NCBI GenBank assembly: GCA_963823665.1
Contig: CAWGMQ010000005.1
Span: forward strand, 1,088,001-1,152,000
Length of the DNA stretch: 64,000 bases
Source: an uncultured Planctomycetota bacterium
GTDB lineage: Bacteria > Planctomycetota > Planctomycetia > Isosphaerales > Isosphaeraceae
Direction of reading: 5' to 3'
In this document: piece after piece, positions 62,468-64,000 of the stretch
Numbering within the stretch: position 1 is the stretch's first letter
Layout of the letters: every line of letters starts with the position of its first letter
Notes under the pieces: generated by a model
Databases searched by the model: none
What the model saw: only the letters and a program-made list of their open reading frames with translations
Told to the model about the DNA's origin: nothing
Translations under genes and position numbers: made by a program

Positions 62468-62713
62468 TTATCCGTTCCCCATCGCACAACTACAAACGCC
62501 CGTGTCCGCGTTAACTCCGCATGTATCATTCAGGCTACAGCACGTGGCAACACCGTTCTCGCAAACGCAAGACGTGGGCGTGCTTCCCGAACAGTTGACG
62601 CTGACGCCTCTGGCAGGTTGGATGCCGGCGATCGAGTTGCCGCGGGAGGGCCCGCGCGTTGGCCAGGAAACACTCCCACGGAGAACCGCGGGTGCTTGTA
62701 CGGGAAGCTTCAT
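62468..62713 (-). CDS. Cys-rich precursor-like peptide 3 (81 aa, 8 Cys)
   Basis: MKLPVQAPAVLR...GIQPA|RGVSVNCSGSTPTSCVCENGVATCCSLNDTCGVNADTGVCSCAMGNG; RBS AAGGAGA. Confidence 0.8.
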   Translation of the reverse strand: MKLPVQAPAVLRGSVSWPTRGPSRGNSIAGIQPARGVSVNCSGSTPTSCVCENGVATCCSLNDTCGVNADTGVCSCAMGNG

Positions 62714-62762
62714 GTCCGGTCTCCTTTCAAATGGACCCCTGGAAAAAACGTGCGCGGATGGC

Positions 62763-63011
62763 TTATGGATTTTTGCAGACACACCTGCCACCGGGAGCTT
62801 CAGAAACACCGTTCGAGTCGCAGCATTGGCATGCACCAGAAGTGCAGCGCCACACGTCTAGTGGAGAGGTGCACTTTCGATTGTTTGGGTCACCTTGACA
62901 GATGTTAATATCGTGTCGAAACGACGCAGAGATGCCATGGCCGGAAGAACGGCTGGCCGGCCAGAAGTTTCCTGTACGAACCACGGCTCCGGTTTGCAAG
63001 GGAAGCTTCAT
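62763..63011 (-). CDS. Cys-rich precursor-like peptide 2 (82 aa, 8 Cys)
   Basis: MKLPLQTGAVVR...GISAS|FRHDINICQGDPNNRKCTSPLDVWRCTSGACQCCDSNGVSEAPGGRCVCKNP; RBS AAGGAGA. Confidence 0.82.
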   Translation of the reverse strand: MKLPLQTGAVVRTGNFWPASRSSGHGISASFRHDINICQGDPNNRKCTSPLDVWRCTSGACQCCDSNGVSEAPGGRCVCKNP

Positions 63012-63060
63012 GTCCGGTCTCCTTTCAAATGGACCCTTGGAAAAACGGTGCGCGGATGGC

Positions 63061-63309
63061 CTATACATTGCAGACACACCTGCCACCGGCTTCCTGATGA
63101 ACACCCTTCAGGCCGCCGCAGCATTGGCACGCACCAGAAAGGCAGCTTTGCACCTGCAGGGGAGGGGTGCACTTTCGATTGCTGATGTCTCCTCCACAGA
63201 TGTTAACGTCGGTTCGAAATGACGCGGAGACGCCTTGGGCGGAAGAACGGCGGGCCGGCCAGGAGTTTCCTGCACGAAGGACGGCTGCGGTTTGCAAGGG
63301 AAGCTTCAT
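63061..63309 (-). CDS. Cys-rich precursor-like peptide 1 (82 aa, 8 Cys)
   Basis: MKLPLQTAAVLR...GVSAS|FRTDVNICGGDISNRKCTPPLQVQSCLSGACQCCGGLKGVHQEAGGRCVCNV; RBS AAGGAGA. Confidence 0.82.
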   Translation of the reverse strand: MKLPLQTAAVLRAGNSWPARRSSAQGVSASFRTDVNICGGDISNRKCTPPLQVQSCLSGACQCCGGLKGVHQEAGGRCVCNV

Positions 63310-63355
63310 GTCCAGTCTCCTTGTAGGTGCCCCGGCGCGGTGGGCGGCGACAAAT

Positions 63356-64000
63356 TCAGCGGGTGAACCATGAGCGCGTCGGGCCGACGGTCACCGGCAC
63401 GGTGTCGCTCACGTCCACCGTAAACCGATAGACCCGGCGCACCGTCTGCACCTGCCGCTCGGGGTAGAAGAAATACACCTCGACATCCCAGCAGTCCGAG
63501 CCAGGCCGGCAGATCGGGCTGCGAACCACGTTGATGCTTTCCAATTCCATCGTTTCCTTGAGGGCGGACTCGTAGACCTTGTCGAATGCAAACGCATTCG
63601 TCGCCGCGAAATTGATCGCCCGGTCCTGCGGGGCCAGGCCCAGGTTGCGCAGCCCGTGGTAAACGCGGTCGAGGAAGTTGCGGACGCCCGCCGTGCGCTG
63701 GGCGTGCGCATCCTGCTCGTGCTACGGAGCCTCCGCCGCGGGCGCGGGGCCGGCCACCGCGTCCGCCAGGGCCGCAGTCGTCCAGCTAAACATGCCACGC
63801 AATTCCGGCACGATGACGGCAACCACCTGCCCCGACAGTAGCGTGGCCTTACCGGCGACGACGCCCGCGATCGATACGCGCTCGACCCCCTCGTCCAGTC
63901 GCTCGCGCAGGAACCGCCGCAGTTCCTTGTACGCATCGGCGGCGAACGGACCTTGCGGCCGGACCGCGTAAATCGCAGTGCCGTCGAGGGCGAGGGTCCA
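63356..64000 (-). CDS. C-terminal domain of a cyanobactin maturation protease-like protein (PatA/PatG C-terminal DUF); 5' part beyond the window; in-frame TAG at 63722-63724
   Basis: Manual translation WTLALDGTAIYAVRPQGPFAADAY...VERVSIAG...LLSGQVV..IVPELRGMFSW...AP*HEQ...NFLDRVYHGLRNLG..PQDRAINFAATNAF...LESINVVRSPICRPGSDCWDVEVYFFYPE...RRVYRFTVDVSD.VPVTVG..RSW. Confidence 0.88.

Follow-up and report, generated by a model that had tools for sequence, protein, structure and literature searches.

The window analysed here, a stretch of 64,000 nucleotides (G000:C5:1088001-1152000) from the genome of a soil planctomycete (G000; 16.46 Mb in 12 contigs, 91.87% complete, 3.48% contamination), carries near its end three tandem genes for small cysteine-rich precursor proteins (A1, A2 and B) behind the 3' end of a gene for a PatA-type subtilisin, and all features of this cassette lie on the minus strand (Table 1). 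Re-measurement of the three open reading frames (ORFs) reproduced the layout given in a preliminary description of this DNA: the genes are co-oriented, encode 81-82 amino acids (aa), are spaced exactly 298 bp from start to start (a repeat search likewise returned three copies with 298/298 spacing), are each preceded by AAGGAGA, share one leader and contain eight Cys each. The leaders follow the consensus MKLP(L/V)Q..AV(L/V)R....WP and then GVSAS, GISAS or GIQPA. Cys, Ser and Thr are abundant in the cores, which share the scaffold C..CxC..G...CC..C..G.CxC between types A and B, and terminate in ...CVCNV, ...CVCKNP and ...CSCAMGNG; most type-B cores have a semi-conserved tail C-x-M-G-x-G after the last Cys (window 62471-62485 and orthologues). 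The gap of 46 bp described between the upstream gene and the ATG of A1 was also recovered, counted from the TGA (63356-63358) that closes a frame with a PatG_C match. No AYD-type follower sequence was present at the C-termini of A1, A2 or B, no further precursor copies were found in G000, and a promoter/terminator scan returned one site each, at or near the shuffle expectation. A Sec/Tat signal peptide was considered for the leaders and rejected, as their maximum 19-residue hydropathy is 0.14-0.72.

Table 1 Features of the precursor cassette and its neighbours in the window
Feature	Position	Strand	Details
Kinase / one hydrophobic segment / WD40 protein, 1397 aa	58208..62401	-	starts 66 bp downstream of precursor B; Pfam domains; hydropathy peak at residues 415-439
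Precursor B	62468..62713	-	81 aa: 34-aa leader ending GIQPA + 47-aa core, 8 Cys
GIQPA codons (B residues 30-34)	62612..62626	-	putative cleavage motif
AAGGAGA ribosome-binding site of B	62720-62726	-	6 nt before ATG
Precursor A2	62763..63011	-	82 aa: leader ending GISAS, 52-aa core, 8 Cys; tandem paralogue of A1, 67% aa identity
GISAS codons of A2	62922-62936	-	putative cleavage motif
AAGGAGA ribosome-binding site of A2	63018-63024	-	6 nt before ATG
Precursor A1	63061..63309 (stop included)	-	82 aa: 30-aa leader ending GVSAS + 52-aa core, 8 Cys; family profile E 2.5e-41
GVSAS codons (A1 residues 26-30)	63220..63234	-	putative PatA-type recognition/cleavage motif, by analogy with modelled B-type orthologue
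AAGGAGA ribosome-binding site of A1	63316..63322	-	6 nt before ATG
3' end of protease gene: PatG_C + TGA	63356..63721	-	PF18065 E 1.6e-40, 138 bits; TIGR03895 positions 495-606
In-frame TAG, PatG_D/PatG_C linker	63722..63724	-	CAG at this site in G001
PatG_D part of protease gene	63725..64000	-	gene continues outside the window to about 65217 (S8 domain)

The ORF pattern goes beyond chance, since the same ORFs and Cys pattern recur in six other genomes and in 41 protein clusters. A profile search of 121 genomes of the bacterial family detected precursors with solid scores in seven (G000; G001, a same-genus genome that served as reference for gene comparison; G021, G090, G083, G102 and G028), and type B, present in 7 genomes, was the most widely conserved precursor type. 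Two weak profile matches, G068 (E 2.9e-3) and G069 (E 3.4e-4, with one internal TGA), were excluded from the seven. The HMMER scan of 1.84 billion representative proteins revealed 41 clusters at E<=1e-3, 15 of them at <=1e-10, and all 41 comprise proteins 71-125 aa long that share the leader box and Cys scaffold described above. A pattern scan of the genomes of 185,579 species, based on a six-row alignment of type B, gave five loci among 56 pattern matches, all in metagenome-assembled genome records of Planctomycetota, and a protein homologue search with the A1 sequence returned two matches only. No family in Pfam or NCBIfam matches A1, A2 or B, and a sequence search of the PDB with the precursor profile gave nothing below E 0.23. 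An A-like precursor with 10 Cys, frameshifted, was seen in G102 (L046:7065-7358), and a related intact copy in G028 (L045:7225-7476).

The protease gene has the domain order Peptidase_S8, PatG_D, PatG_C on one strand, in three frames or pieces in this assembly. An S8 domain, suggested earlier as something to look for upstream, is thus present beyond the window end; its D, H, N and S motifs occur in G000, and D26, H60 and S224 are invariant across 52 aligned homologues. Because the gene is broken, its TIGR03895 match falls into pieces of 326.6, 218.4 and 80 bits, so that no single piece passes the 421-bit cut-off set for the whole protein while their sum would. Intact relatives of 656 aa (G015) and 694 aa are known from our searches, and the former allowed the subtype to be assigned: it matches the PatA/PagA protease domains 4h6v, 4h6w, 3zxx and 3zxy at E 3e-73 to 5e-72, the PatG macrocyclase (4aks/4h6x) at E 2e-29 only, and, with its C-terminal half, the PatG domain of unknown function (DUF; 4uvq) at E 3e-59. 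By these sequence comparisons, the protease is of the PatA (leader protease) subtype and not of the PatG macrocyclase subtype. Homologous proteases of the same architecture form at least 975 clusters at E<=1e-20 (8000 candidates scored), some of which are named from Isosphaeraceae, Lacipirellulaceae, Planctomycetaceae and Thermoproteota and are automatically annotated as cyanobactin maturation proteases. G000 itself has a single PatG_C/TIGR03895 locus and no second PatA/PatG-type locus.

Comparison across genomes, which are related and thus not independent of one another in any of the counts of co-occurrence and adjacency given here, revealed that PatG_C is present in all seven precursor-bearing genomes but in only 27 of the 121 genomes of the bacterial family (7/9 if the two weak profile matches, neither with PatG_C, are included). 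The co-occurrence with PatA/G-like genes that the preliminary description proposed to look for is therefore found, and the precursors lie directly behind the protease in four of the seven (G000, G001, G021 and G090). In the other three genomes the PatA-type gene is intact, and what follows it is another kind of Cys-rich precursor, whose leader is MRLPxLSxxVxRR. Among 35 PatG_C loci found in the bacterial family, 32 were examined (all except G070:C90, G104:C14 and G143:C9:46803), and at 21 of these a small Cys-rich ORF with a leader lies directly downstream; the leaders fall into three types (MKLPxQ, MRLPxLS and MxxPGF(T/S)A). In an evenly drawn sample of 400 other genomes of the phylum, PatG_C was detected in four, and all six of their loci carry tandem, leader-sharing, Cys-containing ORFs for which NCBIfam has no name.

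Several observations were made at these related loci. The third leader, M..(M/L)PGF(T/S)AE.SL...Y, stands on tandem Cys-containing ORFs behind PatG_C genes (L026, L027, L028, L072, L077-L079 and L081), and some of these genes seem to encode DUF proteins that stand alone (320-343 aa); this leader type has no NCBIfam name, and its motif string was not found in the open-access papers searched. Precursors with the MRLPxLSxxVxRR leader have 6-7 Cys and lie directly behind intact PatA-type genes (L048:8334-8507, L058:1866-2340, L057:1936-2145 and others). Two proteins of about 700 aa with VWA domains precede the PatA-type gene in G015 and G028. On the upstream side of the protease in G000, about 1.4-6 kb past the window end (L002:3366-8054, minus strand), a 1562-aa protein combining kinase, nSTAND1 NTPase and FGE-sulfatase domains directly adjoins it, and G001 and G102 also have proteins like it close to the cassette.

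All of A1, A2 and B contain the motif G-phi-x-[PA]-[SAQ]. Of 50 family members, 32 have it between positions 19 and 46, whereas 200 shuffles yielded 2.0 on average and never more than 8. The motif matches the known site of PatA, since PatA-like enzymes are described, in the parts of the two sources consulted, as cleaving after G(L/V)E(A/P)S (PMC10885120, PMC4282754). A complex of the G001 S8 domain (residues 1-310, 52-row alignment) with the B precursor of the same genome (46-row alignment) was modelled, and the model scored 0.72 against 0.01 for the best of three controls. The mark that it passed is one that solved complexes reach in 116 of 157 cases and mismatched pairs in 2 of 215, a calibration that is approximate for custom alignments. 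Contacts agreed between runs to at least 72%, and the predicted local distance difference test value (pLDDT) of the partner was at least 55. What docks is the flexible leader motif (residues 28-42): precursor residues 30-34 (GIQPS) occupy the cleft, with residue 33 against H60 and residue 34 against 156-159, 222 and 227, beside the catalytic Ser224 and the oxyanion Asn (N159). The model supports binding of the GxxP(S/A) motif in the protease active site and predicts cleavage after GIQPS in G001 and, correspondingly, after GIQPA in the window.

AlphaFold2 (AF2) models of the precursors consist of a low-confidence leader and a compact four-strand core, with a core pLDDT of 78-89 for A1, and for B an overall pLDDT of 72 with about 80 in the core. 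Neither model had a Foldseek match in the PDB at E<=0.001, and a wide VIA-align search returned a single row, with a Z of 2.4; no recognisable PDB fold emerged.

Other maturation enzymes were sought in the genome and around the loci, as had been proposed for YcaO, radical SAM proteins and transporters. YcaO (PF02624) had no match in G000 at its 91.87% completeness, whereas the control search found PF02624 in 5 of 14 known genomes. Pfam families of radical SAM, LanB/C/M/KC, MNIO and flavoprotein enzymes were absent at E<=1e-5 from the 140 ORFs (74 + 66) of 11 loci, the rest of the genome not having been searched for them, and among the same ORFs no transporter, thiol-oxidising gene or metal-homeostasis gene was conserved. 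The absence of a follower, pointed out in the preliminary description, is borne out by the C-termini, the single PatA/PatG-type locus leaves no second gene for a macrocyclase, and the non-cyanobacterial host of that description is indeed a planctomycete.

From what was directly observed (the genes, the family they form, how they are linked to PatA-type genes, and what kind of protease is present), we infer with a probability of roughly 0.6 that the locus is a PatA-only cassette, related to cyanobactin systems and resembling those for peptides that are synthesised ribosomally and modified post-translationally (RiPPs), which releases beta-rich Cys mini-proteins of 47-52 aa without macrocyclisation and is possibly impaired here; cleavage, Cys state, export and biological role all belong to the inferred part. 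Each precursor would consist of a disordered leader of 30-34 aa, with the N-terminal box M-K-L-P-x-Q-x-x-A-V-x-R and the motif G-(V/I)-x-(A/P)-(S/A), ahead of its core. A cytoplasmic PatA-type subtilisin (S8 + PatG_D + PatG_C) would bind the motif in its active-site cleft, as in the complex model, and a cut after the last motif residue would release a single core of 47-52 aa. Folding would then give the core a small beta domain of four strands, which the eight conserved Cys would hold together, in all likelihood through up to four disulfides, with neither macrocyclisation nor heterocyclisation. The earlier proposal that leader removal releases miniproteins and not macrocycles thus gains a PatA-type protease and a motif modelled at its active site, whereas processing in G000 itself is uncertain because of the TAG and the frameshift.

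Several results weigh against this reading. Sequence homology of the precursors to cyanobactin precursors is not demonstrable: the PatE-type leader homology put forward in the preliminary description comes down to likeness, as PF19155 (PatE/DUF5837) does not match A1, A2 or B even at E<=10 and NCBIfam gives nothing, and in the ESM Atlas, where the best feature scores were 0.76-0.77, a DUF5837 cyanobactin cluster at 0.76 lies under the level that counts and is a lead only. The pass of the complex model may reflect a general likeness to subtilisin-peptide complexes that are already solved. Precursors lie away from the protease in three of the seven genomes (G083, G102 and G028). The ratio of nonsynonymous to synonymous substitution rates (dN/dS) of the precursors is 0.73-0.94 (G000 versus G001; A1 versus A2; short sequences), values that fit relaxed constraint and diversification equally, and type A has been lost from G001, whose B copy has Tyr in place of one Cys. 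The route to disulfides for a cytoplasmically processed peptide is unexplained, because no transporter or thiol-oxidising gene is conserved nearby. The remaining points concern the protease gene. The TAG at 63722-63724 separates PatG_D from PatG_C with no in-frame start behind it, a 1-bp deletion at about 64565/64566 (~565 bp outside the window) interrupts the S8 domain, and all four proteases adjoining MKLP-type precursors are frameshifted in their assemblies.

The state of this gene was examined against other sequences. No uninterrupted reading frame with the catalytic D, H and S exists in this assembly; the PatA/PatG gene of the preliminary description is real as to its PatG_C end but interrupted, and its TAG had been overlooked. 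The gene is identical to that of G001 at 1891 of 2097 nt, and G001 has CAG in place of the TAG as well as the missing base, along with a different 1-bp deletion of its own. Contigs from public sequencing runs cover parts of a 3-kb stretch at the locus, leaving A1 and most of A2 without cover. Among them, a 178-bp contig of run X1 carries the same TAG, which is no independent support because X1 may be the source sample, and run X4, which belongs to another study, has a 297-bp contig that differs only in containing the missing base (one contig, depth 2.7). The frameshifts of G000, G021 and G090, all long-read assemblies, fall in one G-rich region at about residues 207-236. Large genes (kinase/WD40 and PatA-type) are split into overlapping frames in relatives assembled into few contigs, at L041 (G001), L044 (G090), L049 (G012) and L050 (G033), which suggests frequent indel errors in those assemblies. 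Given the clustering of frameshifts in the G-rich region and the splitting of other large genes in the same long-read assemblies, the 1-bp deletion is probably an assembly error or a strain variant. The TAG is possibly real; reading it as a sense codon was rejected, as A1 itself terminates in TAG. Because the sole PatA-type gene has a premature TAG before PatG_C, the cassette in G000 is possibly impaired, and it may either work with a truncated enzyme or have been recently disabled.

The alternative that survives best takes these interruptions at face value, namely that the cassette is decaying in this lineage, its protease inactivated by the nonsense mutation with or without the frameshift, its precursors drifting and nothing matured here, while the family is functional elsewhere. 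The TAG shared with the X1 contig where G001 has CAG, the lack of any other PatA-type locus in the genome, the precursor dN/dS of 0.73-0.94 and the losses in G001 (type A and one Cys of B) are all consistent with decay. However, all three ORFs are intact and keep their eight Cys and ribosome-binding sites, and between G000 and G001 the three protease parts, the PatG_C behind the TAG included, have dN/dS values of 0.25, 0.32 and 0.20. By these ratios the gene was under purifying selection between the two genomes, and any loss by inactivation would have to be very recent. The frameshift is moreover absent from the otherwise identical X4 contig, its recurrence at one G-rich place in three long-read assemblies suggests assembly error, and the TAG spares S8 and PatG_D, whereas the solved PatA/PagA structures are of protease domains alone (about 306 aa). 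We consider decay unlikely, with enough in its favour to be taken seriously.

Another possibility is that the cores are metal-binding, metallothionein-like peptides kept in the cytoplasm, where their CxC, CC and CxC groups would ligate Zn, Cu or Cd. Eight Cys within 47-52 aa, arranged as CxC...CC...CxC, would suit such ligands, and as the protease has no signal peptide, the precursors no export signal and the neighbourhood no conserved transporter, the peptides could stay in the reducing cytoplasm. Against this, AF2 folds the cores into a four-stranded beta domain without metal (weak evidence), the hypervariable cores and tandem paralogues are as in peptides of competition or signalling, no metal-homeostasis gene is conserved around the loci, and no known metallothionein family was matched in Pfam or NCBIfam. 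Metal binding as the function of the cores thus seems rather improbable to us.

It is less probable still that enzymes encoded elsewhere further modify the Cys, Ser and Thr residues of the cores, giving thioethers, heterocycles or other crosslinks, with the protease acting only at the end of a larger RiPP pathway. These residues are abundant in the cores, and many RiPP pathways have unlinked genes; yet the genome, at its stated completeness, contains no YcaO, the 140 ORFs around the 11 loci contain no radical SAM, LanB/C/M, MNIO or flavoprotein family, and the sole neighbour conserved across the loci is a kinase gene. Small Cys-rich proteins commonly inhibit subtilisins, and the peptide docks in the active site in the model. 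A role as substrate-like inhibitors or regulators of the adjacent subtilisin, and not as its products, is nevertheless hardly credible for A1, A2 and B, because the docked part is the flexible leader motif and not a Cys-constrained loop of the core, the motif resembles the known PatA cleavage site as given in the part of the source consulted (PMC10885120), and precursors occur away from any protease in three genomes.

The conserved kinase gene encodes the 1397-aa protein downstream of precursor B. Full-length orthologues with 57-85% identity lie directly after a B-type precursor in G001, G021, G083, G090 and G102, so that the kinase follows the precursors in six of the seven genomes, including G083 and G102, where no protease is adjacent; the linkage of precursor and kinase is more constant than that of precursor and protease. 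Within a 1.5-kb flank, a kinase/WD40 paralogue stands beside the precursor at 18 of the 32 PatG_C loci of the bacterial family, in contrast to 0 of the 6 loci elsewhere in the phylum. With 150 of 946 candidates scored, Ser/Thr-kinase paralogues gave at least 179 matches in G000 at E<=1e-30, and chance or inherited synteny are for this reason real alternatives for the linkage. On gene order, we regard the kinase as a conserved neighbour and as a candidate member of the system only. A speculative and distinctly improbable extension is that the mature Cys-rich peptides are ligands of this receptor-like Ser/Thr kinase, and that precursor, protease and kinase form a planctomycete peptide-signalling module. 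In such a module the kinase domain would be cytoplasmic, with one membrane-spanning segment and the WD40 propellers across the membrane, and the pairs of Cys-rich peptides and receptor kinases in plants are proposed as an analogy. A lanthipeptide-type role for the kinase was rejected, as it contains Pkinase and WD40 families only and no lyase or cyclase.

The PatA-only cassette was compared with known systems. PatA-type proteases paired with Cys-rich precursors were not described in the open-access literature searched (subscription journals and supplements lay outside its scope), nor were the precursor motif strings found in those papers; the pairing is apparently undescribed in print, in keeping with the candidate new system of the preliminary description, and the subfamily MKLPxQxxAVxR / C..CxC..CC..C..CxC with its conserved kinase neighbour is described in this analysis. 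Knottins, conotoxins and cyclotide precursors have a protease-removed pro-region, a conserved Cys framework, hypervariable loops and multi-copy families, and such eukaryotic disulfide-rich mini-proteins are made in the secretory pathway. The organisation here is alike, and the cores have no fold match to them (none with Foldseek in the PDB at E<=0.001; VIA-align Z 2.4). The precursors of SCIFF/ranthipeptides are short, bacterial and carry many Cys in about 45 residues, and are defined by an adjacent radical SAM maturase; here the neighbouring ORFs contain no radical SAM protein and NCBIfam gives no SCIFF match. For metallothioneins, which gave no match in Pfam or NCBIfam, the one visible likeness is the CxC / CC spacing of the cores.

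Linear cyanobactins are very short, heterocyclised and prenylated or methylated peptides, and their clusters include YcaO and tailoring genes. Tailoring genes of this kind were not found among the ORFs searched here, and the cores are mini-proteins. The lack of macrocyclisation is common to both, as the consulted parts of the sources describe for the aeruginosamide, viridisamide and muscoride types (PMC7551963, PMC10885120). Compared with the patellamide system (PatA, PatE, PatD and PatG), the protease has the same PatA architecture, S8 with a C-terminal DUF (PatG_D + PatG_C), and both share conserved leaders, hypervariable cores and tandem copies; as G(L/V)E(A/P)S does there, according to the part of the source consulted, G-phi-x-(A/P)-(S/A) precedes the core here (PMC10885120). 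The cassette differs in having no PatG-type macrocyclase or second protease, no YcaO (the PatD-type heterocyclase is present in many, not all, cyanobactin clusters) and no AYD-type follower, in having one core of 47-52 aa with 8 Cys where cyanobactin precursors have short cassettes, in precursors unmatched by PF19155 or NCBIfam, and in its host, Planctomycetota. Judged from these likenesses and differences, the module resembles the first step of cyanobactin maturation, yet is no cyanobactin cluster.

If this reading is true, the cassette would be a simple route, of two components, by which bacteria make disulfide-rich or metal-binding mini-proteins, and would supply a naturally occurring library of stable peptide scaffolds along with a leader/protease pair that releases them; the conserved receptor-like kinase neighbour would be a testable lead to their biological role. 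It would also provide a much wider context for finding the function of the enigmatic PatA/PatG DUF, which in PatG is described, in the part of the source consulted, as a novel fold with no detectable binding of PatE in vitro (PMC4259220). The setting in soil planctomycetes is one in which a PatA-type protease stands alone with long, hypervariable, Cys-rich precursors. Cyanobactin proteases, for their part, are known from multi-enzyme pathways that make small macrocycles in cyanobacteria.

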